From Mobula hypostoma (taxonomy: Eukaryota): a stretch of DNA of 64,000 bases. Positions 5,350 through 48,525 of this stretch are shown piece by piece (position 1 is the first letter of the stretch; every line of letters starts with the position of its first letter). The stretch lies in contig NC_086097.1 in the NCBI RefSeq assembly GCF_963921235.1, forward strand, positions 168,828,001-168,892,000, written 5' to 3'. The position numbers were made by a program, and so were the translations under genes. Under the pieces are notes generated by a model, which did no database searches, was not told the DNA's origin, and saw only the letters and a list, made by a program, of their open reading frames with translations.

Positions 5350-5475
5350 GAACAACATCTTCTGTCTGGTTAGCCTCCAACCTGATGGCATGAATTTCTC
5401 CTGGTAAAATAATTTTTCCCTCCCCCCTCCCCTCTTCTGTTCCCTACTCTGGTCTCTCTCCTGTCTATCACCTTC

Positions 5476-7105: not shown

Positions 7106-10100
7106 TCATCTAAAGTCTGCTCGCATTGGGGTTATATATTCAATCCATTTATTCCAGATTCGATAAAATGTTTCTTTTTGAGTTCTCAGGGAGTAGGTCA
7201 ACTTTTCCATTTTAAATATTTCCAAGATAATTTCGTACCAATCTTCTAATGTAGGTGGTATTGGATTTAGCCATTTTCTAGTGATTGATTTCTTACTTGC
7301 CGCTAAGAGGGCCTGCAGCAACTTTATATCTTCCTTCTGTTCAAGGAACAATACATGCCCCAAATAGAGCGTCTCAAAGTTCAGAGGTATCTGGGACCTA
7401 AGTACCTTAACTAATGTTCTATGAATACCTTCCCAAAATAGACTTAATTTAGGGCAATCCCAGAAAATATGAAAATGATTTGCCTCCTTAGAGCCGCACC
7501 TTCTCCAACACATCACATTTGTATCTTTATATTTTTCCTGATATGGGGTCTTGAAGTATCTTATAATGTTTTTCCAACAATGTTCTCTCCAAGTGAAAGA
7601 ATTAGTCGAGGAAAGCTGCAGATTTTCCCCCAAGCCTCCTCTGAAAGTACCAACCCCGCTTCTTTCTCCCACTTCTCTTTAATATACAGTGTATTTACAT
7701 TTTTAGCATGGGAGAGTGCATTATATAGGCGAGAAACTGATTTACTAGGTATTGAACTGCAAGCCGAATTCAGAATCTTGAAAAATTCTAATTCTACTGT
7801 TGATAAGTCTGTATATCTACAACTCTGGTTAACATAGTTTCGTACTTGAAGGTACCTAAAAAAGTCATTATGTTCTAGGCCATGTTTGTCCTGCAGGATT
7901 TGGAAACGTTGTAATACTCTTTTATCTATAAATGAGAGGTAGGTTGTAAGACCTTTCTTTATCCATAGCTCAAATCTTTTATCTCCTCTGTTGGGAAGGA
8001 ATTCGGTATCATATGCACACCATCTAAAGAGTTTTAGCATGTTTTTAGTTCCACATGAATTAACCACCTTCTGCCATACTTTTAATGTAAGATTTATCCA
8101 AGCATTATTAAATTTTTCCAACTGGGCCATCAATCCTTTGTCAGCTATTGAGGCCTGAAGAGGAAAACTGTCAACTAATCCAAATTCTATTTCCTTCCAT
8201 CTAGCCTTATATTCCCTATTACACCAATATAACAGAGGGGTTATCTGTGAGGCATAAAAATAATTTCTCAGGCAAGGAAGAACCATACCTCCTCTTTCCT
8301 TCCCTAACTGTAAAGTGTTATATCGAATTCTAGGTTTCCTTCCTTGCCAAATGAAGCGGGAAATCCATTTGTCCCATTCCCTGAATTGATTATCATCCAC
8401 CTCCACTGGTAAAGTACGGAAAAGATATAATAACCGAGGAAGAATATTCATTTTTATAGTATTTATCCTTGAATTTAAACTTAAATAGGGGATAAGATTC
8501 CATCTATGCATATCTGCTTTTATCTCTGAGATTAATGGCCCATAATTTACCTGTGACAGTGTTGAAAGATCCTTCGGCAGGGTTATTCCTAAATATTTTA
8601 ATGATTTAGCTTCCCACTTAAGATCGTATGTATCCTGCAATTTTTTGGATGATGTATAATTTAGGGACATAACCTGCGTTTTCTTTACATTTATTTTATA
8701 ACCTGATATTTTCCCAAAGTCATCCAACAGTGTAAACAATCCTATAAATGATTTTTCTGGTTCACTCAGATAGACCAAAACATCATCTGCGAATAACGCC
8801 ACTTTCTGTTCAATCCCTGCCACCTTGATACCTTTTACGATTTCGCTCTGTCTTATTAGTTGGGCAAGTGGTTCAATATATAGCGCAAAAAGGAAGAGGA
8901 GAAATTGGGCATTCCTGTCTAGTGCCTCTCTCTAAAATGAAGGAGTCAGAGAGGTCCCCATTTATCTTAATTCGGGCTGTTGGGCTGTCATACAGAGTCT
9001 GAATTACTTTAATAAACCTTTCTTGAAAGCCGAATCTTCCTAACACTCTGTATAGGAATGCCCAACTAACCGAATCAAAAGCTTTCTCAGCGTCCAATCC
9101 TACTACCATTGTCTCTGTCTCGTTCTTATTAACCTGTTCTAATATGTGCAGAGTTCTCCTTATGTTGTCCTGTGTTTGTCTTTGTTGAATAAATCCAGTC
9201 TGGTCTAAATGGATTAGGCCAGGTAAAAGCTTTTCCAATCTGCGCACTAATATAAATGTAAATAGTTTGTAATCTAAATTAAGAACACTAATTGGCCGAT
9301 AATTGCCACATTCTAGTTTATCTTTACCCTCTTTAGGAATAACTGAAATAATCGCTTCTCTCCAGGAAGGTGGAGTTTCTCCTCTCGGCAAGATCCAATT
9401 AAAGGTGTTAAGTAGTAATGGGGCTAACTGTGTCTTCAGGGACTTGTACCACTCTGAGGTAAACCCATCAGAACCCGGGGACTTTCCAGCCTTTAACCTA
9501 GAGATGGCCACGTTCAGTTCTTTGACAGTTACTGGTTCTAATAAACTTTCATTTTGTAAATCTGTAAGTTTAGATAGATCTAAAAAATTCAATACACTGT
9601 CTATATAGGGCTCATTGGGGGCCCGGGGTTGGGAGTACAGCTCTTGATAATACGTTTCAAAACTCTCTTGAATTTTCCCTATTGTACTCTCCACAAGCTT
9701 TGTCTTTGGATTCTTTATTTTATGAATTGTATTGTCTGCTTGTTGTTTTCGTAATTTATATGCTAATAATCTAGCTGATTTACCTCCTACTTCATAATTC
9801 TTTTGTCTCAGGTAAAGAAAATTTCTTTGAGTTTCCAACGTATAAATATCATCAATTTCACTTTGCAATTTCCTAATTTCCTGTTTTCGATTTGAATTAC
9901 TTTTGTTGCTATCTCCAACTTGAAGTTGTTTTAATTTTCCTTGAAGGTCTGCTAATTTTTGTGCATTGATTTTTTTCCATGTGAGTAGTAATGGAGATAA
10001 TTTTCCCTCTCAGTACAGCTTTCAATGTATCCCATAAAATCACTGGTGATGTTTCTCCCGTGTCATTAAGGTCTAGATGTTCTTTGATTTCTCCCCTTAA

Positions 10101-10891
10101 TCTCTCCATTACTTTTGGGTTATTAAGTATATATGTGAGTTTAGCCTCCATAGTGTTTTCCTCATTTTCCTTTCCAGGATTAGAGACATAGAGATTGGGC
10201 TATGATCCAACAGATCAATTGTTGCAATATTACAGTTTTTTATCCTGAGTCTATCTGTATTAAAGATAAAGAAATAGTCTATCCTTGAATAGGCTGAATG
10301 AGGGAAAGAGTAATATGTATAATCTTTACTAGTAGGGTGTAATTCCCTCCAGACATCTATAATTCCCAACTCCTCCATCAATGAATTCACTTTCCGAGTC
10401 AGAGGTTTATTCTGAGTAACTATTCTTGAAGAATCTAATATAGGATTTAATCTAATATTAAAATCCCCTCCACAAATTACTACCCCTCGAGAACTGACCA
10501 TTAGGTCAAAAATGTGTCTGTAAAATGACCATTCACTACCTGGAGGAGCATAAACATTCAGCAATGTTATTTCTGTACCTTCTATTCTTCCTGTGATTTT
10601 TACAAACCGTCCTTCTTTGTCTCTAGTCTCTGAAATATGTTCATAATTAAGAGTACTTGATATTAAAGTAGCTACCCCTCTTTTGTGACTCAATTTATAT
10701 GATGAATAAAATACATGCTTAAAGCCCATTCTTTTTAATTTTCCATGTTCAGATTGGCTCATATGTGTTTCCTGGAGGAAAGCTATTTGTGCCCTCTCTT
10801 TTTTCAATTTTGACATAATCTTATTTCTTTTAATTGGATTCAAAACCCCATTAACATTATAGGAAATTATTTTTACCCATTCAGTTTGCAT
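7106..10891 (-). pseudogene. L1 ORF2 (APE endonuclease, RT, C-terminal Cys motif), broken by ~4 frameshifts
   Basis: SYNVNG, LQETH, GGDFN, SRIDYF; KSPGSDG, YRPISVLN, LDAEKAFD, FADD; CWRRCG…HIFWDC, spread over five ORF-track segments. Confidence 0.92.
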
Positions 10892-11253
10892 TTTTCTCTA
10901 GTAGAAAAAAAGCCCTCTCCTTTTCTAACCAAACAGTAAGCAATCCCTTCTCAACAGTAAACCAAGACATATAACCACACCCTAGACATTTCTGAACGTA
11001 TAACATTTGAAAATTTTCCCCGACTTCCCACAGTGAGGCCTGAGCACCGACCCGCCTCAGTTCAGAGGGATAACCTCTATCTTCACCCTGTGTTAGAGGG
11101 CCCTCAGCAGTTTGAATAATCATAGAGAATTTTCTCCTATTTATGTCTCGACCATATTGCTATCATTCAAGTTATTCCGCCTAGATTATTTTCAATTACC
11201 AGTTTTCATTTTACTTTTAAGTCCGATTTACTCTTTTCAGTCATTTCTCTTAA

Positions 11254-12240
11254 TTAATCTGTATTCTCTGTACATTCGCGTCTGAATATTTGCAGCTTTT
11301 CCTTGTAGTTTGACACTCTGTTTCGAGTGGAGCGTCCTCGCCCCACTAACTGCCACGACTTCTGCCGAATCCTCTCCAGTAGCGACTCCGGTTGGGTGAT
11401 AACTTTAATAGGTAGTCCCCGGTCCGCCAGGTCCGACGTTGCCTCCTCCACCGTAGCGTAAGTTTTTGTCCCTTCGTCGTAAAAGACTCTCAGCCGAGCT
11501 GGATACAGGGTCTGGAATCTGATGTTGTTTTCCTTCAGGACTCTCCGTGTTTCCATATATTCCTTCCGTCTGGCAAGAATCCCCGGTGCGTAGTCGTGGT
11601 CTAAACTGATTTTACAGTTGTTCCACATGAAACCTTTCTTTTGCCATGCTCTTTTAAGCACCTCTTCCTTCGTTCTGTAACTGAGAAATCTGACCAGAAT
11701 CGATCTGGGCTGGGCGCCTGCCGGAGGCTGTGGTGCCAACGCGCGGTGAGCCCTTTCTATCTGTAGGTCTTTTGCGGCCGGTATATCAAGGTTCTCTCTA
11801 AGCAGCTTCTCTATGAAGGGAATCATCAATCCGGGTTTACCTTCGGTTCCTTCGGGAACTCCGTAGATCCTCACATTTTCCCTTCTCGAGCGGCCTTCTT
11901 GATCTATTAGTTTCCACTGGAGTTGGTCTTGTAGCTTCAGTATTTCTGCTATCACCTCCTCTGCATTTTGTAGCTTCTCTTCAATTCCAACAATCCTCGC
12001 TTCGGCTTCATCTATCCGCGAGTTAGTTTTTACTATTTCTCCTTTAATATCTTCCAGCTGTTTGCTGTTATCTTGTCGGAACTCGCGAATCTCTCCGAGA
12101 ATCAAAGACAGAGTCACCGATTCCCCCTCATTATCTCCGTCCTGGCTTGCCGTGGGAGAGCTAGGCCCTTCGCCTTGCTGCATCTCTTTATGTTTATCAG
12201 CCTTCGAAGCGGACTTTTTATTCTTGTTCTTAGACATCAT
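11254..12240 (-). CDS. L1 ORF1p (coiled coil + RRM/CTD), open 328 aa
   Basis: Motifs EGRSRRENVRIYGVPE, IERAHR and LYPARLRV are typical of L1 ORF1. Confidence 0.9.
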   Translation of the reverse strand: MMSKNKNKKSASKADKHKEMQQGEGPSSPTASQDGDNEGESVTLSLILGEIREFRQDNSKQLEDIKGEIVKTNSRIDEAEARIVGIEEKLQNAEEVIAEILKLQDQLQWKLIDQEGRSRRENVRIYGVPEGTEGKPGLMIPFIEKLLRENLDIPAAKDLQIERAHRALAPQPPAGAQPRSILVRFLSYRTKEEVLKRAWQKKGFMWNNCKISLDHDYAPGILARRKEYMETRRVLKENNIRFQTLYPARLRVFYDEGTKTYATVEEATSDLADRGLPIKVITQPESLLERIRQKSWQLVGRGRSTRNRVSNYKEKLQIFRRECTENTD

Positions 12241-13752
12241 CCTTGCCCCTTTTATTAATATAGTTATGCAATATTAAGTATTTGTCTAAATTCGATTTTG
12301 GGGCAGTTTACCTTCTTTTTTGTCGAGAGACCTTTTCCTTACGCCGCCATTCCCTTGATGACCCGGAAGTCCCACCGGTCTTCTAAAAATCTAAGTAAAC
12401 GACATCCACTGACTGTTTTGTCGAAACTGTTACCTCAAAGAGTTTAACGGATTTGTCAGACAAGATTTCCCCTTAACAAAATCAACCTGAGTGTGTCATA
12501 TTTTATCGTGTACTTCCAAGTATTTTGAAGTTTCATCTTCAATAACAGACTTTGAAATCTTACCAATCATTGAAGTCAGGCTAACTAGCTATATTATATG
12601 GGATATATTTTATTATCTTTTTACCTCACTCTCTTAAACAGGTTTTACATTTGCAATTTTTCAGTGCTCTGGGATCCTTTCTGACTCCAGTGTTTCTTGA
12701 AATATTACTATAAGTGCTTCCATGATCTCTTCAGGTACCATTTTTGGAATTCTGAGATGTAGTCCATCTAGTCAAAGCGATTTATCCTCCTTCATACATT
12801 CTAGCTTCCCCAGCACCTTCAACTTAGTAATGGACACTTCAGTCGCTTCTGCCCTATGACACTTGAGAGAATTTCTGGCATGTTACTAGTACGTTCCAAT
12901 CTGAAGAATGATAGAAGGTTCTTACTTTCCCCATCGCTACTAGTACAGCATTATTTTCCTGTGTTTCAATGTCTACTCTTTCCTCTCTCTTACCATTTAA
13001 GTATCTAAATGTCACAGATAGACCGCCATCCTAATGCAGGGTGTTGAATTGAAGCGTCAGCATTTCCTTTCCCTCCATAGATACTGCTCAACCCATTAAG
13101 TTCCTCCAGCAGATTGTTTGTTGCTCCATATTCCAGCATCAGTAATATCCCATGTCTCCAGACATGGGACAGTGTGTCACCAGTACTGAGACTATGACTG
13201 TTGGTAAAAGTGAGGAAAGATATGATGCTGCATGTGATAAATGTTAGCGTTCAGATATTTGCAAAACAAGTTAGTAAATGTAAGGCTGTTTGTTACTGTG
13301 TGCATTTAAGTGCACACTTAGCCAGAAGCACTTGGTTTGAGCAGCGTTCCAGATGTTGAAGGGTGTGAGGGAAGAGAAGTGAGTGCAGTTACAAGAAGAA
13401 GGTGCTCAAAAAGCTGAAAAGCCCAAAGGTACCTGGACCAGATGAACTGCACCCTAGGGTTCTGAAAGGGGTAGCTTTAGTAATGATCTTTAAAAAAAAT
13501 CATTGGACTCTGCCATGGTGCCAGAGGACTGGAAAATTCCAAATCTCACTCCATTCTTTAAGAAAGAAGGAAGGTAGCAGAAAGGAAATTATAGACCAGT
13601 TAGCCTAACCTCAGTGGCTGGAAAGATGTTGGAGTCAGTTGTTAATGATGAGATTATGAAGTACTTGGTTACACAGGACAAGACAGAACAAAGGCAGCAT
13701 GGTTACTGACATGGGTAGAGCATTGGCTGATTGGTAGGAGGCAAAGAATGTG

Positions 13753-17965: not shown

Positions 17966-19954
17966 TTTTTTTAATTTCTAAATATACTTTATTCAAAAAT
18001 AAATATATACAATAAACCATTCAATAACTTTTCATCCTTTACATACGTTTCCATTATAGTCAGTACATATCCGTATTTATAGCCACCCACGTGGCACTCC
18101 AGTAGTTCAGCTTACCAAATCATTGTTGAGGGGTATCCTCCCCGCCCACCGACCCCTCCCACTCCCACGGGTGGAGAAACCTATACTGTGGGCCTTCCCC
18201 ACCGGGCCCTTGCGGTGACTGCACCGAGTTTCAGTGCGTCCCTCAGCACGTACTCCTGCAACCGAGAATGTGCCAGTCGGTAGCATTCTCCCACGGACAT
18301 CTCCATGTGCTGGTACATCATCAAGTTTCGGGCCGACCAAAGAGTGTCCTTCACCGAGTTGATGATCTGCCAGCAGCACCGGATGTTGGTCTCCGTGTGC
18401 GTTCCCAGGAACAGCCCGTAGATCAGAGAGTCCTCTGTTACGCAGCTGCTGGGGATAAAACGTGACACTAGCCCGTCCATCCTCCTCCACACCCTCTTTG
18501 CGAACTGGCAGTGTGCAAAGAGGTGGGTCACAGACTCCTCCTCACTGCAGTCCTCCCGTGGGCAGTGGGGTGCGGAGTCGACGTTCCGGGCGTACAGGGG
18601 GGCTCTGACTGGGAGGGCCCCTCTCACCGCCAGCCAGGCGAGGTCTTGGTGCCTGTTGGTGAGATCTGGCAATGAGGCATTTTGCCAGATGAACTGGACA
18701 GTCTGCTCAGGGAACCACCCCACTGTGTCCATCACGTCCTTCTCCTGCAGTACCTGCAGGACACTACGTGCCGACCACTGCCTGATGGCCCTGTGGTCAA
18801 AGGCGTTCTCCTGGAAGAACTTTGCTACGTAGGACAGGTATGCCGGCAACGACCAGCTGACTGGGGCGTTGTGCGGGAGTGGGGCCAGACCCATCCTTCG
18901 TAGCCAGGGCGACAGGTAGAACCTGGGCACATAGTGGTACTTGGTGCCCACATACCTGGGTTCTACACACAACCTGATGCAGCCACACATGAAGCTGACC
19001 ATCAGGGTGAGGGCGACATTGGGGACGTTCTTGCCCCCGTTGTCGAGGGACTTGAGCATGACGGTCTGTCTCACCCGCTCCATCTTGGATCCCCAGACGA
19101 ATCTGAAGACAGCCCGGGTGATTTCCGAGCTATAGGAGCGGGGGACGGGCCAGACCTGCGCCAAGTACAGCAGCCTTGAGAGCACCTCACACCTGATGAC
19201 CAGGTTCTTGCCCGTTATCGACAGGGAGCGCCCTCCCCACAGTCCCAGTTTCTGTTTCACCTTGGCAGTCCGCTCCTGCCAGTTCTTGTTGCATGCCTCA
19301 GCCCCTCCGAACCAGATCCCCAACACCCTCACGTGGTCAGACCTGATGGTGAAGGGGATGCTGGATCGGTCGGGCCAGTTGCCAAAGAGCATGGCTTCGC
19401 TCTTCGTGCGGTTGACCCTGGCCCCCGACGCTAGCTCGAACTGTTCGCAGGTGCCAATCAACCTGCGAATTGACCTTGCATCAGAGCAGAAGACGGTGAC
19501 GTCGTCCATGTACAGGGAGGTTTTCACTTGGGTCCCTCCACTGCCTGGCAGCGTCACCCCTCTTATGCCCTCATCCCTCCTGATGGCTTCCGCAAAGGGT
19601 TCTATGTAGCAGACAGACAAGACAGGGGAGAGGGGACAGCCCTGCCTGACTCCAGACCTGATGGGGAAGCTGTCTGTTTCCCACCCGTTGACCTGGACTG
19701 CACTACGGATGTCTGTGTAGAGCAGTCTAATCCAATTCCGGATTCCCTCCCCAAATCCCATTTTGGAGAGCACGTCCGCCATGTACGTGTGCGATATCCT
19801 GTCGAAGGCTTTCTCCTGGTCCAAGCTGACCAGGCAGGCGTCCACCCCCCTGTCCTGCACGTAGGCGATGGTGTCCCTCAGCAGCGCGAGGCTGTCTGAG
19901 ATCTTCTTGCCCGGTACAGCACAGGTTTGGTCTGGGTGAATCACCTGTCCTAGA
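17966..19954 (-). mobile_element. Tx1-clade (L1-like) non-LTR retrotransposon, 5'-truncated, open 587-aa RT-to-C-terminus frame (18181-19944)
   Basis: IHPDQTCAVPG, SLDQEKAFDR, GVRQGCPLSP, YMDD, CPREDC…HLFAHC; A-rich tail at 17966; flanked by a 154-bp direct repeat. Confidence 0.9.
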
Positions 19955-20198
19955 GCAGATAATATGAGATTGGTGGAAGGGCAGGTCGTGTTGAGGAAAC
20001 AGGTAGGCTGCAGAAGGACTTATAGACAGATTAGGAGAATGGGCAAGGAAATGCCAAATGAAATACAATGTTGGAAAATGCATGGTCATGCACTTTGGTA
20101 GTAGAAATAAATGTGCAGACTATTTTCTAAATGGGGAGAAAATCCAAAGATTTGAGATGCAAAGGGACTTGGTAGTCCTTGTGCAGAACACCCTAAAG

Positions 20199-22372
20199 TA
20201 GGGGTCACCAACCCGTCGATCGCAATCGTTGAGACTTCCCCAGTAGATCCCAAAGAAAAAACCAAAAATAAATACACAAGTACTATTGTAATGTGAGCAT
20301 TATAAAAGTAATGCTAATTAGGATATTGGTAATATAGCAATATTTTCGCTAAAAAGCTGCCATGCATCGCATTTTCAGCGTAGCCTGTGCTGCATCAAAG
20401 TGACCAATCAGGTTAGATGAGAGTACGGACTGTTGCAAACGTCGATATACGGCAGCGTCCCCAACCTCCGGGCCGCAAAGCATGCAGTGGTGCAGCGGTA
20501 GTCAGGATGCACACAGCACATCTTTAAGAAAAAAAGCCGAAATAAACCAGCTAATTAATTAGGTGCTGCCTGGCATGTAAATGTCGGCCCAGATCAGAGG
20601 CGACGCAATCGGCAATCGCTCGTGATACCCTGATAGCATAGTGGAGGCTCCACAAAAGAAGGCAAAAACATACAAATTCCATCCAGAATGGGAAGAGGAA
20701 TTTCTGTTTACCTTGGTGAAAGACAAGTGTGTATGTATGTTGTGCCACCAAACACAAGCACTGACTAAAAGGGGAATCTGGAGCAGCACCACAACACCAA
20801 CCACCAGGAATTTAAAGACACCTCCCCCCCCCCCCAAAGAGCGCAATTCGTACCTGGAAAGTTGAGCTGAAATCGGGGTTGAAGGTCCAGCAATCGTTTT
20901 GCACAAAACATGCTGCTCAAAATAAGGCTGCTGTTGAAGCATCATTTCGTGTAAGTCACCTTTTGGCTAAACACAAGAAGCCTTTTACAGATGGCGATTT
21001 ATTCAAGGAAGCAATGGTCATTACCGCAGAGACTGTTTTTAATTACTTTACAAACAAAAACAGCATCACAACTGCAATACATAATATACCGCTTGGCTCT
21101 GCAACAGTGACAAGGAGAGTAGAGTCACTGTCCGAGGACGTGAATATTTTTCACTACAGTTCGATGAATCCCTGGATGTAATGCAAACAGCTCAGCTTGT
21201 TGTATTTGTCAGAATGGCTTTCCAGGATTTTACAACAAAAGAGGACTTCCTCACTCTTTTGCAATTAAAGGAAAGAATGAGAGATGAGGATATTTACAAT
21301 GAGTTTAAAAAAATATGTCTGTGAAAATGACATCCCCATTCATTCATAAACTGGTGGCAATTACTACCGATGGGGCCCCAGCAATGCGCGGTGTGCACGT
21401 TGGTTTTATAGCACTAAAAGTCAGTGCCTACTTCGGGTCAACTTATCTGTGTGAAATTGCATTTTCACAGATGAAAATTATTAAATCTAAGTACAGGAGC
21501 TGACTTACTGACAGACACCTCACTAGGGTTGCCAACTTTCTCACTCCCAAATAAGGGACAGAAGTAGCAGTCAAATCCCGGGACATTTGTGTTTACCCCG
21601 AGAAAGGCTACCATGACCATGAAGTCTTGCGCAGGCACCTGTGTGCGCATGTGCGTACCGATTTTTTTTTACCCCACAAATCTGTTTTGGTTTAATCTTC
21701 ATTATTTCTACTTTATATAGGCTGTGTATATATCATCTCATTCCTGCTTTTAATATATATTAGTGTTATTTTAGGTTTTATGTGTTGTTTGGTATGATTT
21801 GGTAGGTTATTTTTTTGGGTCTGGGAACACTCAAAATTTTTTTCCATATAAATTGATGATAATTGCTTCTTCGGCGTAAACCATTTCGGCACGAAAGGTT
21901 TCATAGGAACACTCTACCTTAGTGGGCGAAATACGGGACAGTTGGCAACCCTACACCTCTCAGACTGTCTCAGACTGGCTGTCAGTACTTATGAGCCAAA
22001 TTTCAGGGAACTTGCAGAAAGTGTTCAGCCCCAGTCATCATACTGAGTGCAACAGTCAATTTTTATTCATTTATTTTTTGTCTTGAAATAAAATTAAATA
22101 ATGAAACTTAGAATTAAAGGTGTGAAGTATTGTAAGATTCTTAAAGAAAGACAGCTATGGCCTGTTTGATATGCTAGTTACAGTGTTTGAATTAATTTGA
22201 AAGTTTGACAAAAGTATCTTGTGTAATTCAAATACAATTCACCCAAATAAAAGGCCTCAAATTGGAAGTACAATCTGATCTGTTTTTTCTCTAAACGATT
22301 TAGTAGGTAGGTCTTGCCTTTCACTGAGGTCGAGGTAGGGGAGCTTTGGCTTAAAAAGGTTGGTGACCACTA
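20199..22372 (+). mobile_element. hAT (Charlie/Buster-type) DNA transposon, internally deleted and frameshifted transposase
   Basis: TIR taggggtcaccaacc / ggttggtgaccacta (14/15); 8-bp TSD ccctaaag (20191-20198, 22373-22380) with central TA; transposase remnants FHPEWEEEFLF…CVCMLC, AKHKKPFTDG, AITTDGAPAMRG, FGSTYLCE.AFSQMKIIKSKYRS. Confidence 0.92.
21524..21953. mobile_element. Non-autonomous hAT MITE nested in the Charlie-type element
   Basis: TIR tagggttgccaact / agttggcaacccta; 8-bp TSD cacctcac / cacctctc (7/8). Confidence 0.85.
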
Positions 22373-25541: not shown

Positions 25542-28500
25542 CAGGCTTCCCCTGCCATCCGAAGGTAGAGTGTTCCTATGTAACAGTTTGTAAGCCAGAA
25601 TGTCGTAAAGCGAAGAAGCAATTACCATTTATTTATATGGGAAAAATTTGTGAGCATTCGCAAACCCAAAAATAACCTACCAAATCATGCCAAATAACAC
25701 ATAAAACCTAAAATAACAGTAACATATAGTAAAAGCAGGAATGATATGATAAATTCACAGCCTATATAAAGTAGAAATATTTCTCTACAATCATTGCTGC
25801 ACTGTTCTGCGTAGCGAAAATCTCACGCAAGTGCTCTCGGCAGAAACACTCTCTCCGGTAACCTTTAAGCTATGAAGCTGCCAAATCATACCAAATAACG
25901 CATAAAAATACACAGCCTATATAAAGTAGAAATAATGTATGTACAGTGTAGTATCACTTACTGGAATCAGGAAGACAGCGCCGAGCACACTGATGATGGT
26001 GTGTTAGGCTGAGTCGTCGGAGGTTGGGGTAGTGCAGTGGCCCCCACCCTCCAGGCCGCCGACCGATACCAATCCGCGAAGCATGCAGGGGTACAGCAGT
26101 AGCCAGGACGCACCCAACACATCTTTAAGAAAAAAGCCGAAATAAACAAGCTAATTAATTAGGTGCCGCCTGGCACGTAAATGTCGGCCCAGATATATCG
26201 GTCCGCGGCCTGGTGATTGGGGTGGTGGGACACTGGGGTGTCATCTCTTCAATCAGGGCAGGCAGGTCAAATTCTTCTATGTCTGCCTGCCTCAATGTCA
26301 AGGGTCAAGGTTCGTCGTCTGCTGTGGCTGATGTGGAAGGCTTGCTTGACTGCTTAGCCTCGCGCATTTTTCTATCATACAGTTCTTTGTAAGCACTCAA
26401 ACCATCTTGCAAATATGCCCTAAACCGACGTACCCTTTCAAAATTAAAGTCGTACTTTATCATTGCAGCAAAAATCTCACGCAGTTGCTTCACATTCAGT
26501 TCCTGGACGACTTCACTTTCGGTGCGTTCGCTACTGCATTCGGTTTCGATTGTTATCCTTTCCTCTTCCAATTGCATCAGCTCTTCATCTATCAGTTCTT
26601 GGTCATGGGATGCCAAAACCTTTTCAACATCAGCTTAGTAAACTTCCACAAGCCAAACTCACTTTGTCCTTACTTCATAGAATTTCATAGAATAGTACAG
26701 CACAGTACAGGCCCTTCGGCCCACAATGTTGTGCCGACCCTCAAACCCTGCCTCCCATATAACCCCCCCACCTTAAATTCCTCCATATACCTGTCTAGTA
26801 CTCTCTTCAACTTCACGAGTGTATCTGCCTCCACCACTGATTCAGGTAGTGCACTCCACGCACCAACCAGTCTCTGAGTAAAAAACCTTCCTCTGATATC
26901 CCCCTTGAACTTTCCACCCCTTACCTTAAATCCATGTCCTCTTGTATTGAGCAGTGGTGCCCTGGGGAAGAAGTGCTGGCTATCCACTCTATCTATTCCT
27001 CTTATTATCTTGTACACCTGTATCATGTCTCCTCTGATCCTCCTTCTCTCCAAAGAGTAAAGCCCTGGCTCCCTTAATCTCTGATCATAATGCATACTCT
27101 CTAAACCAGGCAGCATCCTGGTAAATCTCCTCTGTACCCTTTCCAATGCTTCCACATCCTTCCTATAGTGAGGCGACTAGTACTGGACACAGTACTCCAA
27201 GTGTGGCCTAACCAGAGTTTTATAGAGCTGCACCATTACATCGCGACTCTTAAACTCTATCCCTTGACTTATGAAAGCTAACACCCCATGAGGTTTCTTA
27301 ACTACCCTATCCACCTGTGAGGCAACTTTCAGGGATCTGTGGACATGTACCCCGAGATCCCTCTGCTCCTCCACACTACCAAGTATCCTGCCATTTACTT
27401 TGTACTCTGCCTTGGGGTTTGTCCTTCCAAAGTACCACCTCAGACTTCTCCAGGTTGAACTCCATCTGCCACTTCTCAGCCCACTTCTGCATCCCATCAA
27501 TGTCTCTCTGCAATCTTTGACAATCCCCTACACTATCTACAACACCACTAACCTTTGTGTTGTCTGCAAACTTGCCAACCCACCCTTCTATCCCCACACC
27601 CAGTTCCTTAATAAAAATCACGAAAAGTAGAGATCCTTGTGGGACACCACTAGTCACAATCCTCCAATCCGAATGCAGTCCCTCCACCACGACCCTCTGC
27701 CTTCTACAGGCAAGCCAATTCTGAATCCACCTGGCCAAACTTCCCTGGATCCCATGCCTTCTGACTTTCTGAATAAACCTACCGTGTGGAACCTTGTCAA
27801 ATGCCTTACTAAAATCCATATGGATCACTTCCACTGCACTACCCTCATCTATGTGCCTGGTCACCTCCTCAAAGAACTCTATCAGGCTTGTTAGACACGA
27901 TCTGCCCTTCACGAAGCCATGCTGACTGTCCCTGATCAGACCATGATTCTCTAAATACCCATAGATCCTATCTCTAAGAATCTTTTCCAACAGCTTTCCC
28001 ACCACAGACGTAAGGCTCATGGTCTATAATTACCTGGACTATCCCTACTACGTTTTTTGAACAAGGGGACAACATTTGCCTCCCGCTAATCCTCCGGTAC
28101 CATTCCCGTGGACAACGGGGACATAAAGATCCTAGCCAGAGGCTCAGCAATCTCTTCCCTTGTCTCGTGGAGCAGCCTGGGGAATATTCTGTCAGGCCCC
28201 AGGGACTTATCTGTCCTAATGTATTTTAACAACTCCAACACCTCCTCTCCCTTAATATCAACATGCTCCAGAACATCAACCTCACTCATATTGTCTTCAT
28301 CGTCATCAAGTTCCCTCTCATTGGTGAATACCGAAGAGATGTATTCATTGAGGACCTCGTTCATTTCCACAGCCTCCAGGCACATCTTCCCACCTTTATC
28401 TTCTTTCACCACGATCGAAACTCTTAATTATGTCTAGTTTTACACTAAGTGTAACACCCTTACGAGCTTTTCAGGCTTTTCCGATACCTTAGAACTCACC

Positions 28501-28699
28501 TTGCTAACGGCTGCTCACAGGCACATGTTTAAGCAATGCTGGCGAGAATGCAGTTCCGAATCCGTGAGTGGCTGCTCGGGGCGCACGCTGATTTTTTTCG
28601 TAACAGTGAAAACACCTTCTGTTAGCGAAAACAGGTAACTAATGTAGGTCTTTCGTAACAGTTTCATAAAGCGAACGTTCGAAAAGCGAGGGACACCTG
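25542..28699 (-). mobile_element. Non-autonomous Tc1/mariner-superfamily (Tigger/pogo-like) element, copy 1
   Basis: TA duplication on both sides; CAGG…CCTG termini; host CR1 rejoins as caatcaata|ttagg (compare 54161); acidic transposase C-terminal remnant SHDQELIDEELMQLEEE…YKELYDRK. Confidence 0.85.
26677..28399 (-). mobile_element. 5'-truncated CR1 nested in Tigger-like copy 1
   Basis: RT ORFs 26685-28400; absent from Tigger-like copy 2 at the homologous position (~41900). Confidence 0.9.
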
Positions 28700-30501
28700 T
28701 ATTAGGAAAGTTAAAGTCACCCATGATAACAACCCTGTTATTTTTTCACCTTTCCAAAATCTGCCTCCAATCTGCTCCTCTGTATCTCTGCTGCTACCGG
28801 GGGGGGGGCCTATAGAATACCCCCAATAGAGTAACTGCTCCCTTCCTGTTCCTGACTTCCACCCATACTGACTCAAAAGAGGATCCTGCTACATTACCCA
28901 CCCTTTCTGTAGCTGTAATACTATCCCTGACCAGTAATGCCACCCCTCCTCCCCTTCCCCCCCCCCATTCCTTTTAAAGCACTGAAATCCAGGAATATTG
29001 AAAATCCATTCCTGCCCTGGTGCCAGCCAAGTCTCTGTAATGGCCACTACATCATAATTCCATGTATGTATCCAAGCTCTCAGTTCATCACCTTTGTTCC
29101 TGATGCTTCTTGCATTGAGGTACACACACTTTAGCCCTTCTACCTTACTACCTTTACACCCTTTATTCTGCTTCTCTTTCCTCAAAGCCTCTCTATATGT
29201 TAGATCTGGCTTTACTCCATGCACTTCTTTCACTGCTCTATTGCTCCAGGTCCCATCCACCTTACAAATTAGTTTAAACCCTCCCAAACTATGCTAGCAA
29301 ACCTACCTCCAAGGATATTGCTCCCCTTCGAGTTCAGGTGCAACCCATCCAATCTGTACAGGTCCCACCTTCCCCAGAAGAGATCCCAATGATCCAAAAA
29401 TCTAAAACCCTGCCCCTGCACCAACTCCTCAGCCACACATTCAACTGCTATCTCCTCCAATTCTTACCATCATTGTCACTTAGCACTGGCAGCAATCCTG
29501 AGAATGCCACCCTTGAGGTCCTGTTCTTCAGCCTTCTGCCTAGTTCCCGAAACTCACACTTCAGGACCTCATCCTTCTTCCTGCCTGTGTCGTTGGTCCC
29601 AACATGCATCACGACTTCTGGTTGCTTTCCCTCGAGCCAGGATGTCATGCACCCGGTCAGAGATATCCCGGACCCTGGCACCCGGGAGGCAACAAACCAT
29701 GCGGGTGTCCTTCTCACGTCCACAAAATCTCCTGTCTGCTCCCTGACTATAGAACCTACAATGATGACAGCTCTCCTCTTCTCCGTCCCACCCTTCTGCA
29801 CCACAGAGTCAGACTTAGTGCCAGAGGCCCTGCCACCGTGGCTCACACCTAGTCGGTCGTTTGGTGGGGCCGGAGGTTGTCTTCCCTGGACTTACGCAGA
29901 CAAGGAAACCAGAGTGTTTCACAAGGAACCTTTGATGGCTCTGGGTCTGTACTTGCTGGAATTTAGAAGTATGAGGGGGGAATCTCATTGAAACCTTTCA
30001 AATGTTGAAAGACCTAGATAGAGTAGATGTGGAAAGGATGTTTCCCATGGTGAGGAAGTCTAGAACAAGAGGGAAGAGCCTCAGGATAGAGGGGTGTCCA
30101 TTTATAACAGATGCAGAGAAATTTCCTTAGCCAGAGGGTGGTGAATTTGTGGAACTTATTACCACAGACAGCCGTGAAGGTCAGGTCACTGGGTGTATTT
30201 AAGGTAGAGCTTGATAGTTTCTTGATTGGAAATGGCATGGAAGGTTACCGGGAGAAGGCTGGGGAGTGGGTTGAGGAGGGGAAAAAGGGATCAGCCATGA
30301 TTGAATGGCGGAGCAGACTCGTTGAGCCAAATGGCCTAATTCTGCTCCTATGTCTTATGGTCTGATATTTCATGATGACTGTAATATTGTCTGCTTTATA
30401 GCGAGGAGGAGGGTTGAATAGTTAGAATTTATTTCTAAGGCAGTAATGTTTTATAATTTGTACTTTTAACCATCTTTAATTAACATTGTTTTATGTTGCA
30501 G

Positions 30502-38050: not shown

Positions 38051-38065
38051 TTCGGTACCCTGGAC

Positions 38066-39395
38066 AACACACACAAAATGCTGGAGGAACTCAGTAGGCC
38101 TGGCAGCATCTATGGAAAAGAGTACAGTCAACGTTTTGGGCCGAGACCCTTCAGCAGGACTGGAGAAAAAAAGCTGAGGAGAAGATTTAAAAGAGTGGGG
38201 AGGGCAGAGAGAAACACAAAGTGATACAGTCGGCCCTCCTTATCCGCAAGTTCCGCATGTGCGAATTCAACCAACCGCGAACCGAGAAAACTGGAAGTGC
38301 TCTTCCAGCACTTGTTGTTCGAACATGTACAGACTTTTTTTTCTTGTCATTATTCCCTAAACAATGTAGTATAACAACTATTTTACATGGCATTTATATT
38401 GTATTAGGTATTATAAGTAATCTGGAGATGATTTAAAGTATACGGGAGGATGTGTGTAGGTTATCGTGGATCGGGATCGAAAACAAAACCATAAGTTCTC
38501 TTACTAAGTAAGTCGGAACAGGTACATCCAGTATTATTTAGCGTCAGTTAGTCAAACATTTGTCTTAGTATATAGTATATACTTTACCTTTCTATGCATA
38601 TAAAACACTTAAGAAACGTATGTTTTTGCGCCGGGCTCGCGAACGGAAATTCCCGAGTTCGATCCAGTGACAGACCACTCTCGAGCGCGCTCTCCATCCG
38701 TGCCGGGTTGATGTGGAGGATCAAAAACCCAAAACCCAATAATTAAACCATTGCGTTGCTTAGTAATAATTGTAGCTTTAATCGGGGCAGGGATTTTCTC
38801 ACTTTATCCTTTAAAATTGTTCCGATCGTTGACCGACTGTAGGCTAACACTTTTCCAATGACCGATGGCATTTCACCTCTTTTCGATTGCTTTATTATTT
38901 CCACTTAATTTTAAATCACTATCGTGATTATTTTCGTGAGCAGAAACACTGCGGATTCAGAGCTTCGCTGCCGGGTCCTAATGTCCACTGCACTGAGACA
39001 GGTTAAGTAAGGTCCGGGGTTCTGCTGGGTCCTAAGGTCCACCGCATTTAGACAGGTTGAAGAAGGACTTGAGCTTCGTGTTTTTTGGTATCCGCGAGGG
39101 GTCCCGGAACCAATCCCTTGCAGATAAGGAGGGCCGGCTGTACAGGTGAAACCTGAAGGGGGAAGAGTGAAGTAAGAGCTGGGGAGTTGATAGGTGAGAT
39201 AAATACAAGGCTGGAGTAGAAGAGGACAGAAGGCCATGGAAGAAAGAAAAGGGGGGAAGAGCACCAGAGGGAGGTGATGGGCAGGCAGGGAGATAAGATG
39301 AGAGAGGATAAAAGGGATGGGAAATGGTGAAGGAGGTGGGCGGCGGGGCATTACCAGAAGTTCGAGAAATTGATGTTCATGACATCAGGTTAGAG
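38066..39395 (-). mobile_element. Penelope-like terminal fragment (decayed hammerhead 38125-38162) interrupted by the MER2-like element
   Basis: Minus strand cagtc-CTGCTGA-agggtctcggccc-AAAAC-GTT-gactg; PLE 3' region resumes at 39143. Confidence 0.75.
38227..39140 (-). mobile_element. Tigger-family non-autonomous DNA transposon, MER2-like
   Basis: 24-bp TIR cagtcggccctccttatccgcaag / cttgcagataaggagggccggctg (22/24); TA TSD; ends and 38321-38465 resemble the mammalian MER2 consensus as recalled. Confidence 0.85.
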
Positions 39396-40989
39396 GTCAC
39401 ACAGATCCAATACTCCAGATGTGGCCTAACCAGAGTTTTATAAAGTTGCAACATAACCTCCTGACCTTTGAACTCAATGCCTTGACTAATAAAAGCAAGC
39501 ATTCCATAAGCCTTCTTAACAACTTATCGACCTGTGTAGCCACCTTCAAGGAGCTGTGAACTTGGATCCCAAGATCTCTCTGCTTAGCAACACTGTTAAG
39601 GATCTTGCCCTTAACAGTGTATTGTCTTCTTACATCCGCCCTACCGAGGTGCAACACCTCACATTTGTCTGGGTTAAACTCCGTCTACCATTTCTCAGCC
39701 AATATCTGCAACTGATCTATATTGTGCTGTATTCTTTGTCAGTCTTCTACACTATCCGCAACGCCACCGATCTTGATATCATCCGCAAATTTACGAACCC
39801 ACCATCTGCTTTTTCGTCCAGGTCATTTATATACTGTACATCACAAGCAGCAGAGGTCCCAGAACAGATCCCTGCAGAACACCACTAATTACAGATCTAT
39901 TGCTCGATTAAGTCCCTTCAACCATTACTCTCTGTCTTCTATGCGCAAGCCAGCTCTGAATCCAAACAGCCGCTGATCCCATGTATCTTACAAACAGTTT
40001 ATTAAAATCCACGTAGACAACATCCACTGCCCTGCCCTCATCACTCTCTCATCGCCTTAATCCCACTTGCCAAGGACTTTCCGTGGCCCTGCCTGGTTTG
40101 TCTAATCCCCTTCTTTAGTTTTATCTGGCTTCATTGTACTCCTCGTGCTTTGTTTGATCCTGACTTCCAAATTTTATGTACTTTTCCTTTTTCTTGACTA
40201 AATTTGTCACACCTCTGGACAGCCAAGGTTCTCTTATCTTTCCATCTCTGTCCTTCCTTCTAACAGAACATGCCTTTACTGTACTCTGTGCCATTGATCT
40301 TTAGACACCCGCCACATGCTTTCCTTCTAACAAGAATCTACCTTTACTGTACTCTGTGCAATTGATCTTTAAACACCCGCCACATGTCTGATGTGGATTT
40401 GCCAGAGAAAAGGTGTTCCCAATTAGCGCTTTTTAATTTCTACCTACTGCCCTCATAATTTGCCTTACTCCTATTTAAAACTCTCCCGCAAGGACTATTC
40501 CTATCCTTATCTATAGCCATCCTGGAAGATAAGGAGTTGTGGTCACTCTTCCGTAACTGTTCACCCACTGAAAGGTCAGTCACCTAGCCAGGCTCATTAC
40601 CCAACAGCAGATCCAGTACGGCCCCTCTTCTTGTTGGACCATCCACATGTTGGTTTAAGAAACTTCCCTGTATACACTTATCAAATTCAGCCCCATATAA
40701 ACCCGTTGCACTATAAAGGTCCCAGTTTATATTAGGGAAGTTAAAATCCCCCATGACAACAGCCCTATTATCTTTACATGTTTCCTTAATCTGATTACAT
40801 ATCTGTTCCTCAATGTCCTGGTGGATATTAGGGGGTCTGTAGCACAATCCCATCAGTGTGATTGCACCCTTTCTATTCCTGAGTTCCACTCAAATGGACT
40901 CAATGTCTGACCCCTCAATTATGTCTCCAGAGTGCAGCTGTGATATTTTCCCCGATTAGCAGTGCAACTCCCCCACCCCCTTCCTCCTC

Positions 40990-43352
40990 TATATATATTC
41001 AGGTGTCTTGCCATTCAGTGTGGGCAATCATGTCTCTCTATCCATCACGGTCCGTGACCGTCCGAATTGTAGTTGTTGCCTCCCCTGTTTCTAACCATGA
41101 TGTTATTCCATCTATCATTTTCATTCTCTGTCTGCCTCTGCTTCTTTTTCCTTCCAGCTTTCCAGTTGTAACTAAATGTTCTAATGTCTCTCTTTGCATG
41201 ATGCGTCCAAAGAATTTTGATTGCTGTTTTCTGATTTTTTTTTAAGTAATGTACGTTTTCATTCTCTGTAGAACTTCTTCGTTGGTTATCCTGTCCGTAT
41301 ATGATATGCGTAGCATTCTTCGGAGGAGCCACATCTCTGCTGCATTGATTCTTTTTTCCATTGCATTTGTGATAGTCCATGACTCGCAGCCATACATCAA
41401 TATAGGAAGAATGTAGCAGCTGAGAGTTCTAAGGCGGATGTCAATTGCTATTTTCTTGTTCGTTAGGATGTTTCTCATTTCTGTAAATGCTGTTCTTGCC
41501 ATTGCTATTCTTGCTTTTATGTCTGTTTCGCATTTGCCATCAGATGTTACCCATGATCCAAGGTACTTGAAGTTGTGAACTTGTTTCAGGATTTCATTTT
41601 CCAATACAATCCTATAATTTGGGATATCAGGTTTCTTTGATATTACCATTACAGGTGCCCCCGCTTTTCGAACGTTCGCTTTACAAAAGCTCACTGTTAC
41701 GGAAAAAAAGCAGCGCGTGCCCCAAGCAGCCGCTCTCCCCCGGATTCGGAATGGCATTCTAGCCAGCATTGCTTAAACACGTGCCTGTGAGCAGCCGTTA
41801 GCAAGATGAGTTCTAAGGTATCGGAAAAGCCTAGAAGAGCTTGTAAGGGTGTTACACTTAGCGTAAAACTAGACATAATTAAGCGTTTTGATTGTGGTGA
41901 ACGAAGCAAGGACAAAGTGAGTTTGGCTTGTGGGAGCTGATGAAGATGATGTTGAAGACGTTTTGACATCCCATGACCAAGAACTGATAGATGAAGAGCT
42001 GATGCAATTGGAAGAAGAAAGGATAACAATTGAAAGCGAATGCAGTAGCAAACTGAATGTGAAGCAACTGCGTGATATTTTCACTGCAATAATAAAGTAT
42101 GACTTTAATTTTGAAAGGGTACGTAGGTTTAGGAGATACTTGCAGGATGGTTTGAGTCCTTACAAAGAACTGTACGATAGAAAAATGTGCGAGGCTCAGC
42201 AGTCAAGCAAGCCTTCCACATCAGCCACAGCAGACGACGAACCTCAACCTTCGACATCGAGGCAGGCAGTCACAGGAGAAGATGAGCTGCCTGCTCTAAT
42301 GGAAACAGACGACGAGATGACACCCCAGTGTCCCACCACCCCGCGATTCGCGGAGAATGCAGCAGTAGCTGGGAGGCACACAGCACATCTTTAAGAAAAA
42401 GGCCAAAATAAACATGCTAATTAATTAGGTGCCCCTCGACATGTAATTGTCGGCCCAGATCAGAGACGACGCAATCGGAAATCGGCACTGATCTGGGCCG
42501 ACAATTATGTGCCGGGCGGCACCTAATTAATTAGCATGTTTATTTTGGCTTTTTTCTTAAAGATGTACTGTGTGCCTCCCGGCTACCGCTGCACCCCTGC
42601 GTGCTTCGCTGATTGGTATCGGTCGCCTGGAGGGCGGGGGCCACTGCACCACCCAACCTGCGACGACTCAGTCTAACACACCATCATCAGTGTGCTCGGT
42701 GCTGAACCAATTCCGTTAAGTGATACTACACTGTACATACATTATTTCTACTTTATATAGGCTGTGTATTTTTACGTGTTATTTGGTATGATTTGGCAGC
42801 TTCATAGCTTAAAGGTTACTGGAGAGCGCTTGCGCCGTGTTTTTGCCAACGGCGCTTGCGTGAGATTTTCGCTACGGAGAACAGTGCAGTAATGATTGTG
42901 GAAAAGTATTTCTACTTTATATAGGCTGTGTATTTATCATATCATTCCTGCTTTTACTATATGTTACTGTTATTTTACGTTTTAAGTGTTATTTGACATG
43001 ATTTGGTAGGTTATTTTTGGGTCTGCGAACGCTCACAAATTTTTCCCATATAAATAAATGGTAATTGCTTCTTCGTTTTACAACATTTCGGCTTACGAAC
43101 CATTTCATAGGAACGCTCTACCTTCGGATGGCGGGGGAAACCTGTACTTCAGTTTTCTTTTTGTTTAAGGTTAGGCCAAGTCTTTCGCTGTCTGTGTTGA
43201 TGGTAGATACTAGTTTCTGTAAATTTACTCCACTGTTGGCTATCAGTACTATATCATCCACATTGCGGAGGTTGCTAATATTATATCCTCCTATACTTAT
43301 TCCAGGTAGGTCTTGTATGGTTCTCATGATGTTTTCACTAAGGATTTGCTTT
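40990..43352 (-). mobile_element. RTE-clade LINE, 5'-truncated, interrupted by Tigger-like copy 2
   Basis: ISNLRNVDD, LNKKKTEV|MVISKK across the insertion, FKYLGS, ILMYGCESWT, AAEMWLLRRMLRISYTDRITNEEVL. Confidence 0.85.
41652..43144 (+). mobile_element. Tigger/pogo-like non-autonomous element, copy 2 (~1.5 kb)
   Basis: TA TSD; caggtgcccccgcttttcgaacgtt … ccttcggatggcgggggaaacctg; homologous to 25542-28699 in the opposite orientation. Confidence 0.87.
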
Positions 43353-44856: not shown

Positions 44857-45130
44857 CTGCATGCATTCAAATGTAACAAATTCAACATGAAAATGTAAAA
44901 TGTAAAAATCTATATAGCGTCGTAGCATTGGTATTCATATCTTGAATTTTCTTGTAAAATTTCATTTTCATATGTAGTAGACATTGACCTAAGAATGTGT
45001 TGGTCATTAATCTTTGCATCGTTTTGTTTTCTGATTTTATTGATGCTTGAATAGGGCACATGCATAAATAAGCTAAACTTTTAACAAATACCTGTAGTTT
45101 ATTTAAGAACAGTAATAGGAGTATTATCAT

Positions 45131-46172
45131 GAACAAAAGAAAATCTGCAGATGCTGAAAATCAAGATTACACACGTACAATGCTGGAAGAACTCAGCAGG
45201 CAAAGCAGCATCTATGGGAAGGAGTAAACAGTCGTTGTTTCGGGCCAAGACCCTTGATTGGTGAAAGAAATAAAGGGCTGGAGAAAGGGGAACCTGATAG
45301 GAGAGGACAGAAGGCCATAGGAGAAAGGAGAAAGGGGAGGAGCACAAGAAGGAGGTGATGGGCAGGTAAGGAGATCCAGTGAGAGAGGGAAATGGGAATT
45401 GGGGGGGGGGGCTTCAATTATCGGAAGTTGGAGACATCAATGTTCATGCCATCAGATTGGAGGCTTCCCAGATGGAATATAAGGTATCTCTCCTCCAATC
45501 TGAGTGCGGCCTCATCACAGCTTTAGAGAACCATGGACTGACATATTGGAATGGGAAGTAGAATTGAAATGTGTAGCCACTGGGAGATCTCACTTCTTCT
45601 GGTGGACAGAGCATAGGTGCTCAGCAAAGCAGTCTCCCAATCTATGTCAGGTCTCACTGATAAACAGGAGGCCACATCAGGAGCACTGGATACAGTAGAT
45701 AACCCCAACTGACTCACAGGTAATTTTTGCCTCACCTGGAAGGTCTGCTTGGGACCCTGAATGGTAGTGAGGGAGGATGTGTAGGGGCAGGCGTGGAACT
45801 TGTTCTACTTGCAATGGTAAGTATCAGGAGGGCAATCAGTGAGGAATTGTGTGGAGAGCAATACTTGCGGAGAGCAGAAAGTGGAGGGTGATGTGCTTGG
45901 TGGTGGGATCCCGTTGGATATGATGGAAGTTACAGACAGTTATGTGCTGGGCGTGGCGGCTGGTGGGGTAGTAGGTGAATGCAAAAGGAACCCTATCTCT
46001 TGTGGCAGGCAGATGAGGTGAGTACAGATGCGCGTGAAATGGAAGAGATGTAGGTGATGGTGCAGGAAGGAAAGCCCCTTTCATTCAAGAAGGAGGACAT
46101 CTCATTAGTTCTGGAATGAAAAGCCTCATCCTGAGAGCAGATGTGGCAGAGATGGAGGAATTGAGAGGAGGG
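45131..46172 (-). mobile_element. Degenerate Penelope-like element
   Basis: Antisense similarity to 4110-5349, including the GIY-YIG region and terminal sequence. Confidence 0.8.
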
Positions 46173-47405: not shown

Positions 47406-48013
47406 AGATTCAAGATTCAAAATTGTTTAAATCCAGTGCCAGTAGACAAGTGAAAAGGAGATGAAATAATTGTTACTCTGGTTCCGATGCAGCACAAAAA
47501 ACCCCCCACTAAGATAAAGAACACAATAAAAAAGCACAATAAATATAAATATGTTATAAACATAGTTTATATACATTAATTGTACACTAATAAAGTGGCA
47601 CTAAGCACTGTAGTGTCTGGAGAAGGTGACTGACAGGAAATGATAAAGTGGTGGTTGGGGGTGTGGAGGGGTGTGTTACTGGTGTTGATTAGCCTTGCTG
47701 CTTGGGGAGATTAACTGGTGTTGAGTTTGGTGATTCTGGTGTGGAGGCTACCCTGAAAGGAGTGGGACAAGTAATTCCATGAGCAGGGTGGGATCCTTTG
47801 TGATGTTACTGGCTCTTTTCCAGCATCTTTGTCCTTGATGGTGGGCAGGCTTGTGCCAGTGATGCACTGGGCAGTTTTAATTACCCTTTGTAGAGCCATA
47901 CAGTCCTCCGCATTGCACTTTCCATATCATACAGTGATGCAGGATGCTCTCTATTGTGCAGATGTAGAATGACATGAATATTGATGTGCATAGTTCAGCT
48001 CTCTTCAGCCTTA
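47406..48013 (-). mobile_element. Rex1/Babar-like LINE 3' fragment
   Basis: FYICTIESIL…ALQRVIKTAQCITGTSLP; (caagatt)n tail. Confidence 0.6.
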
Positions 48014-48027
48014 ACAGACTAGCATTT

Positions 48028-48257
48028 AAGCAACATACATCAAAGTTGCTGGTGAGCGCAGCAGGCCAAGCAGCATCTATAGGAAGAGGCGCAGTCGACG
48101 TTTCAGGCCGAGACCCTTCGTCAGGTCCTGACGAAGGGTCTCGGCCTGAAACGTCGACAGCGCCTCTTCCTATAGATGCTGCTTGGCCTGCTGCGCTCAC
48201 CAGCAACTTTGATGTATGTTGCTTGAATTTCCAGCATCTGCAGAATTCCTGTTGTTT
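48028..48257. mobile_element. Palindromic PLE-derived mini-element with two hammerhead cores
   Basis: 98-bp arms 48028-48125 / 48127-48224 (1 mismatch, 1-nt spacer); 16-bp flanking direct repeat acagactagcatttaa / acaggctagcatttaa (48014-48029, 48258-48273). Confidence 0.9.
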
Positions 48258-48525
48258 ACAGGCTAGCATTTAATTGTTTTTTGTATTATATGAAAGATCA
48301 GTGTGGAATTTAAAATGCGATCAAGCATATTAAAACTGAAAATAATATTTTCATCATATGCAGTATTAAGTGTAAAAGCAAGAGTATATGTTTCCATTTG
48401 ATATTGGCAAAAGTTGGAACAAATTTTAACTTGTTCAAAAAGATAAGTGGAGCAGAAGAAAAAAAGAAAGGTCTATGACAAGGTGAAGAGAATCTAACAC
48501 TTAGGAAACTATTCTATCTTCACAG

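Follow-up and report, generated by a model that had tools for sequence, protein, structure and literature searches.

The window, by which we mean the whole 64-kb stretch of DNA analysed here, contains at positions 38227–39140 an element of 914 bp with a TA dinucleotide at both of its edges. The element lies in the end of an older retroelement and is read on the minus strand, with its own 5' end at 39140. Its parts and the adjoining host sequence are the following:

38065–38224, minus strand: host, left part of the end of an older Penelope-like (GIY-YIG) retroelement; aligns to a paralog up to the TA
38225–38226, no strand: left TA target-site duplication
38227–39140, minus strand: whole element, a non-autonomous Tigger (pogo superfamily) of the internal-deletion type
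38227–38250, plus strand: 3' terminal inverted repeat, 24 bp
38227–38276, minus strand: block at the 3' end, homologous to the corresponding end of a human element, 37 of 50 columns (74%), by eye
38322–38464, minus strand: inner AT-rich non-coding block homologous to the human element, 116 of 144 columns, or 116 of 133 ungapped (87%), by eye
38466–38737, no strand: internal segment, in which no C-terminal remnant of a transposase was found
38738–38925, minus strand: decayed start of a Tigger transposase, ca residues 20–87 of its relatives, comprising the CENP-B N-terminal helix-turn-helix and the linker
38968–39066, no strand: two direct repeats of 45 nt upstream of the transposase remnant, starting at 38968 and 39022 (spacing 54) and 82% alike
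39068–39140, minus strand: 5' end block homologous to the human 5' end, 50 of 74 columns (68%), by eye
39117–39140, minus strand: 5' terminal inverted repeat of 24 bp, which is complementary to the 3' repeat at 22 of 24 positions
39141–39142, no strand: right TA target-site duplication
39143–39412, minus strand: host, right part of the same Penelope-like retroelement; the alignment to the same paralog resumes here

When the TAs are included, the two arms (38225–38250 and 39117–39142) are complementary at 24 of 26 positions (92%). The coordinates that an earlier note on this DNA had assigned to a TA-flanked element with 24-bp terminal inverted repeats hold, and the length of the repeats falls inside the range of 8–33 bp given for Tigger elements in the available text of PMC9219625. 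The whole window was also scanned for arm pairs of the TA-CAG type, and the element is one of the three pairs listed; no second copy of it was found in the 64 kb. The part from 38466 to 39140 has no Rfam match at E≤1. Two short inverted repeats that overlap each other are present at 38291–38314, within a spacer for which the human element has no aligning counterpart.

The two flanks of the element were aligned separately, and both match one paralogous repeat at 4700–5420 in the window, colinearly across the insertion point. The left flank (38065–38226) matches this paralog up to the TA, and the right flank picks up 3 nt further on, from 39148. A second paralog, near 45130–45480, has the same flank order. 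Because the paralogs are 70–81% alike, the empty site can be restored to within 2 nt but no more precisely. The first paralog adjoins an ORF (4395–4913) that contains a GIY-YIG domain, and since this ORF lies behind frames resembling a reverse transcriptase (read by eye, with no Pfam match), the host can be assigned as a Penelope-like retroelement. The observed-to-expected CpG ratio is 1.09 for the element, compared to 0.37 for the window, and the two pieces of the host have ratios of 0.24–0.27, calculated from 2 and 3 CpGs only. The element is thus little depleted in CpG, and the ratios fit an arrival later than that of the retroelement in which it sits.

On the right-hand side (39141–39147) the TA is followed by CAG, which is the start of the motif of the terminal inverted repeat, and the flank is here 2 nt longer than the paralog. 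These features may have been left behind by an imprecise repair or by a previous excision. Elsewhere in the window, at 47877–48330, a terminal piece of a Penelope-like element occurs as an inverted pair in head-to-head arrangement, with the centre near 48125.

We now turn to the coding content of the element. Translation in six frames reveals a helix-turn-helix-like stretch at 38925–38797 of the minus strand. It has two stop codons at its start and continues after a frameshift at 38788–38738. In most relatives the two pieces sit 8 residues apart, and the remnant is therefore taken to correspond to the above-mentioned residues with a small deletion, namely a frameshifting loss of ca 8 codons near 38797–38788. 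It retains about 65 codons of the DNA-binding domain and has neither a start codon nor a catalytic domain; an intact ORF with a DD29-36D catalytic domain is absent from the element. The best tblastn value obtained in the internal segment with 70 proteins was E 0.03. The presence of a transposase remnant that lacks the C-terminal part argues that the element, read from 39140 downwards, is an internal-deletion derivative of a Tigger. The similarity to the human repeat had earlier been placed in non-coding sequence. The inner block is indeed non-coding, but the element is not so throughout, as the decayed transposase start is located at 38925–38738 (minus strand).

The assignment of the remnant relies on protein comparisons. 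Pfam gives a weak match to CENP-B_N (E 0.058). The top Pfam match, to ribosomal S13 (E 0.001, below the cut-off), was rejected given the Tigger matches obtained with phmmer and tblastn, and the sole PDB match, likewise to ribosomal S13 with an E value of 0.91, is due to chance. Using a 38-aa core without stops as the query, a phmmer search of 1.84 billion proteins (E≤0.001) resulted in 12 matches, nine of which contain CENP-B_N and/or HTH_Tnp_Tc5, while two have no Pfam domain and one is spurious. The named matches are TIGD1-like proteins of loris, galago, a frog, softshell turtle and beetle. The spurious match, P0005 (bacterial Ig repeats), and P0007, which is a helix-turn-helix repeat protein, were left out of the later comparisons and of the tree. 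Follow-up protein searches yielded further relatives from amphibians, lizards, a monotreme and crustaceans, and cluster members from a sea spider. A word-index protein search with the 49-aa remnant was also made, in which none of the five candidates passed, and no relatives of P0034 were found in viral contigs.

When Tigger proteins are compared with the window, E values down to 6e-17 are obtained at the remnant. Among the 70 proteins compared over the 58 non-stop residues, the best named match is the TIGD1-like protein of Geotrypetes seraphini (P0034) with 47 identical residues, followed by P0045 with 44, Engystomops with 43, and loris and galago with 42; the best 20 of the 70 range from 41 to 47. 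The TIGD1-like transposases of G. seraphini, of the JGI/Logan entries P0045, P0046 and P0073, and of frog, Pelodiscus, Anolis and loris/galago have the CENP-B N-terminal helix-turn-helix and the linker in common with the ray remnant. They differ from it in that the ray keeps only the first ca 65 codons, in broken form, and the comparison concerns the proteins and identifies none of these elements as the parent. Together with the TA and the short inverted repeats, this CENP-B-type transposase homology bears out the Tigger type that had been proposed from the DNA.

A second batoid copy of the remnant is found in the tail of the Hypanus sabinus protein XP_059819220.1 (P0072), with 68% over 50 aa and an E value of 4e-11. 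It is there joined to unrelated sequence that has no match in the window, and the leader common to the element and the stingray copy agrees at 6 of 16 residues only, compared to 4–5 for three others. The occurrence of the remnant in a stingray gene model points to a transposon family in rays. The gene model carries the name GTF2IRD2-like, and its Tigger tail is probably a nested insertion that was read through by the annotation.

Next, we consider the likeness to the human repeat. The ends of the element and the block 38321–38465 had been suggested to resemble the human MER2. For the comparison we used a TA-flanked human copy of ca 342 bases (our own count), which from its size and layout we take to be MER2, presumably a TcMar-Tigger family. 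The size of MER2 is ca 345 bp. The copy used is contained in a probe given in Table S2 of PMC6578592 for the human lncRNA ENST00000563647.1 (chr14:57,993,545–57,994,525); the name MER2 has no occurrence in that paper, and the human element is not named there. The alignment was made by eye between the minus strand of the ray element and this one decayed copy.

The three blocks listed above are colinear and in one orientation in the ray and human elements, and the similarity is hence not limited to the terminal inverted repeats but extends into the inner block, as had been suggested. Taken together, the blocks agree in 203 of 268 columns (76%), or 203 of 256 ungapped sites, and span 266 of the 914 bases of the ray element (29%) and ca 75% of the human copy, which is below the 80% identity over 80% of the length that defines a MER2 copy. 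For the inner block, the Jukes–Cantor distance is 0.14 substitutions per site, and the binomial tail for 116 matches at 133 sites with a match rate of 0.32 is 7e-40, uncorrected for gap placement. At several of the terminal mismatches, a CG of the window is replaced by TG or CA in the human sequence, a pattern that decay on the human side would produce. The identity to the family consensus would probably be higher than that to this decayed copy.

Two parts of the ray element do not align, namely a stretch of ca 45 nt that separates the inner block from the 3' end, and the insert of 600 bp. As to the latter, the earlier note was right that about 600 bp are extra relative to MER2: the human element has ca 30 unrelated nucleotides as a spacer in that place. 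The two elements have in common the TA flanks, the short terminal inverted repeats starting with CAG, the 5' end, the inner block and the 3' end, all in the same order. However, the human one contains no transposase remnant, whereas the ray element has both the remnant and the two 45-nt repeats. We regard the two as sister products, the ray element being neither a copy nor a member of MER2. Because the ray element keeps coding sequence that the short human-type MITE lacks, it cannot have been derived from such a MITE, and the ray and human elements would rather be deletion products of related autonomous parents. In the available part of PMC5753468, MER2 is placed in the Mariner/Tc1 class, following Repbase, and no parent is given.

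The identity of the inner block can be compared with what neutral evolution would leave. In PMC7070016, the chondrichthyan split is dated to 473 My by the time tree of the supplement, and a vertebrate synonymous rate of 3.1e-9 is given; according to the same source, as far as its text is available, DNA transposons evolve neutrally within genomes. At 473 My, the expected neutral identity is 0.26 at this rate, 0.46 at 1e-9, and 0.65 at 0.5e-9 in both lineages, where the latter two rates are assumed; the comparison is a rate-based one. On these rates, neutral descent of dead copies since the split of sharks and mammals is excluded. With an inner block at 87% identity, compared to the 26–46% expected (65% at the extreme slow rate), a horizontal transfer somewhere in the lineage is therefore likely, when indirect and direct routes are counted together. 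The three signs of horizontal transposon transfer named in the available text of PMC9219625 are a similarity higher than that of non-mobile sequence, an incongruent tree and a patchy distribution.

An alternative that avoids transfer altogether is that a Tigger lineage has been active since the gnathostome ancestor, with the ends and the 3' block kept under selection for transposition, and has given rise to separate derivatives in rays and in mammals. Related transposases are indeed widespread among vertebrates, with representatives from caecilians, frogs, turtle, lizards, platypus and also primates, the termini are 68–74% like those of the human copy, and cartilaginous fishes evolve slowly. 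However, an AT-rich non-coding block would then have been preserved at 87% or more over a summed branch length of ca 950 My, while the coding remnant has at most 81% amino-acid identity to any named relative. Furthermore, proteins of crab, prawn, sea spider and beetle fall in the same clades, and the neutral evolution of DNA transposons in the absence of transfer (PMC7070016, available text) also speaks against it. We consider this explanation unlikely.

Given a horizontal transfer, the question is between which hosts it took place. To this end, a tree was calculated for the remnant and 34 proteins chosen from 104, that is, 35 rows with 60 shared columns, using LG+G4. The placement of the remnant itself has a support of only 17–36%. 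Loris and galago fall in a clade with 96% support that also contains turtle, lizards and frogs, and the remnant is outside of it. The crab groups with frog and caecilian at 94%, and the beetle with Discoglossus at 96%, and the galago and turtle proteins are 81% identical over 228 aa. Since these groupings cut across the host phylogeny, the transposase clade looks mobile between hosts. At the same time, the remnant falls outside the primate clade and its own position has the low support just given, which argues that the protein provides no special link between ray and mammal. The loris/galago protein was considered as the mammalian partner and rejected, as it belongs to a separate clade (96%).

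The same loris/galago ORF (P0001/P0013/P0014) is annotated as a PRKRIP1 fusion in Nycticebus and as TIGD1-like in Otolemur. A separate transfer into strepsirrhine primates, or a domestication in them, is possible for this Tigger ORF.

In view of these results, a single event in which the autonomous parent passed directly, or nearly so, between a cartilaginous fish and an early eutherian is also improbable. It would account well for an inner block that is very near the human copy, and it has a precedent in the available text of PMC9219625, where Tigger elements are described as transferred between two shark species and a carnivore. The closest relative of the remnant is, however, not mammalian, and similar transposable elements in distant hosts are often the outcome of separate incoming transfers (PMC7070016, available text). 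A direct jump between ray and mammal is thus unsupported, and a third reservoir is more probable than such a jump. Of the horizontal transfer that had been suggested earlier, the part that stands is that the identity is too high for neutral vertical descent, but a ray–mammal transfer as such, and a transfer of the MITE itself, are not borne out.

Human contamination, a chimeric assembly or chance likeness in AT-rich DNA might be suspected from the single copy in the window and the AT-rich inner block, but is very improbable for an element of 914 bp that is CpG-rich, has a transposase remnant absent from the human element, sits with its TA duplication within a native retroelement, has another copy of its remnant in a stingray gene model, and for which the binomial tail given above makes a chance match improbable.

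Taken as a whole, the observations are probably best explained by a dead deletion derivative of a Tigger whose lineage reached rays and eutherians by separate horizontal invasions. In this history, an internal deletion would have removed the greater part of the transposase gene from an autonomous parent, with the ends, the upstream region and ca 65 codons being kept. The transposase of an intact relative would then have recognised the terminal inverted repeats, excised the element and pasted it into a TA of the old Penelope-like retroelement, whereby the TA target would have been duplicated. Both the mobilisation in trans and the origin by internal deletion with later decay are proposed by analogy with the established biology of Tc1/mariner–pogo elements. 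The ray element and the ca 342-bp human repeat would go back to parents of one lineage, the human repeat being the shorter of two deletion products that share these ends. The rate argument implies that one or more horizontal transfers would have taken place after the split of sharks and mammals, and separate invasions from a third host group seem most likely, rather than a transfer from ray to mammal or from mammal to ray. As an insertion the element is dead, and nothing in it points to a function for the host.

We know of no autonomous parent identified for MER2. One can speculate further that a missing link for the human MER2 is found in the ray element, in that it ties the MER2 ends to the transposase clade of the caecilian and the P0045/P0073 proteins and thereby points to the autonomous parent of MER2. 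A shared reservoir may then have been the source of one Cretaceous wave in which the lineage entered early eutherians, batoids and arthropods. Surveys based on coding sequence would have missed this wave, since none was retained on the mammalian side. This extended proposal is tentative, and we regard it as rather doubtful in its entirety. The origin of old human DNA-transposon families is mostly inferred and not traced, and what is gained here is a transposase fragment that is physically linked to MER2-type ends and can serve as a search handle for the parent element and the reservoir.

Tigger transfer between eutherians and sharks as such is already known: the available text of Diaby et al. 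2022 (PMC9219625) reports 13 events, which include transfers between two sharks and Eutheria. The chondrichthyan Tiggers described there are of the same family as the ray element and have the same TA target, terminal inverted repeats of ca 23 bp and the same pair of host groups, but the five chondrichthyan terminal motifs listed all differ from that of the ray element. That study is based on coding sequence, and its main text does not contain the name MER2. Another comparable case is that of Mariner_Tbel and Mariner1_BT, mammalian DNA-transposon families that, according to the available part of Oliveira et al. 2012 (PMC3517439), came from a distant, probably insect, source ca 100–69 My ago. 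These belong to mariner, however, and not to pogo/Tigger, and consensus identities of more than 95% are given for them, as compared to the one human copy aligned by eye here. A possible fish origin for part of MER6 is discussed in the available text of PMC6887750.

Transfers in which mammals take part have seldom been detected: in the survey of PMC7070016, as far as its text is available, 24 of 975 transfer events involve mammals or birds. The survey uses Ks of coding regions, with coding sequence needed on both sides, and two cartilaginous fishes, Callorhinchus and Rhincodon, are among the names searched; a non-coding human MITE matched to the ray element would therefore escape it. The consensus library or the hit table of that survey could hold the present Tigger family. 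No matching termini were found in the pogo/Tigger tables of PMC7386202, the supplement cells of which were covered to 400 characters, and the available texts of PMC10162687 and PMC3466250 contain nothing relevant. A link of MER2 to any non-mammalian genome was not found in the titles and starts of abstracts of the papers listed from the open literature. Four inner motifs have no matches in the published text searched; the terminal motifs match five papers, among them the one with the human copy and two with chance matches to primers.

Searches of other sequence collections gave no match of the element to phages or plasmids, and exact motif scans of viral contigs and GTDB genomes gave nothing. 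Two metagenome loci were rejected as chance, as they have only a motif of 20–21 nt in common with the element. In a search of sequencing runs, 20 of the 24 rows listed (9 studies, 10 organisms) contain 0.21–0.45 of the sampled words, and none contains half or more; at face value this corresponds to copies with 95–97.5% identity, and it is not used as evidence here.

The window contains several other repeats. A second, unrelated Tigger family is present in two copies that are 83–89% alike (25542–28700 and ca 41652–43144), with TA flanks, short terminal inverted repeats and remnants of both ends of a transposase. The first of these copies is split by a CR1-type LINE at ca 26677–28400, and further pieces of the family are found at 20473–20618 and 21703–21920. 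On the minus strand, there is a nearly complete L1-like LINE at 7106–12273, with ORF1 and a frameshifted ORF2, and at 18181–20019 a Tx1-like reverse-transcriptase frame of 612 aa with RVT_1 and zf-RVT, the clade labels of both being our own reading.
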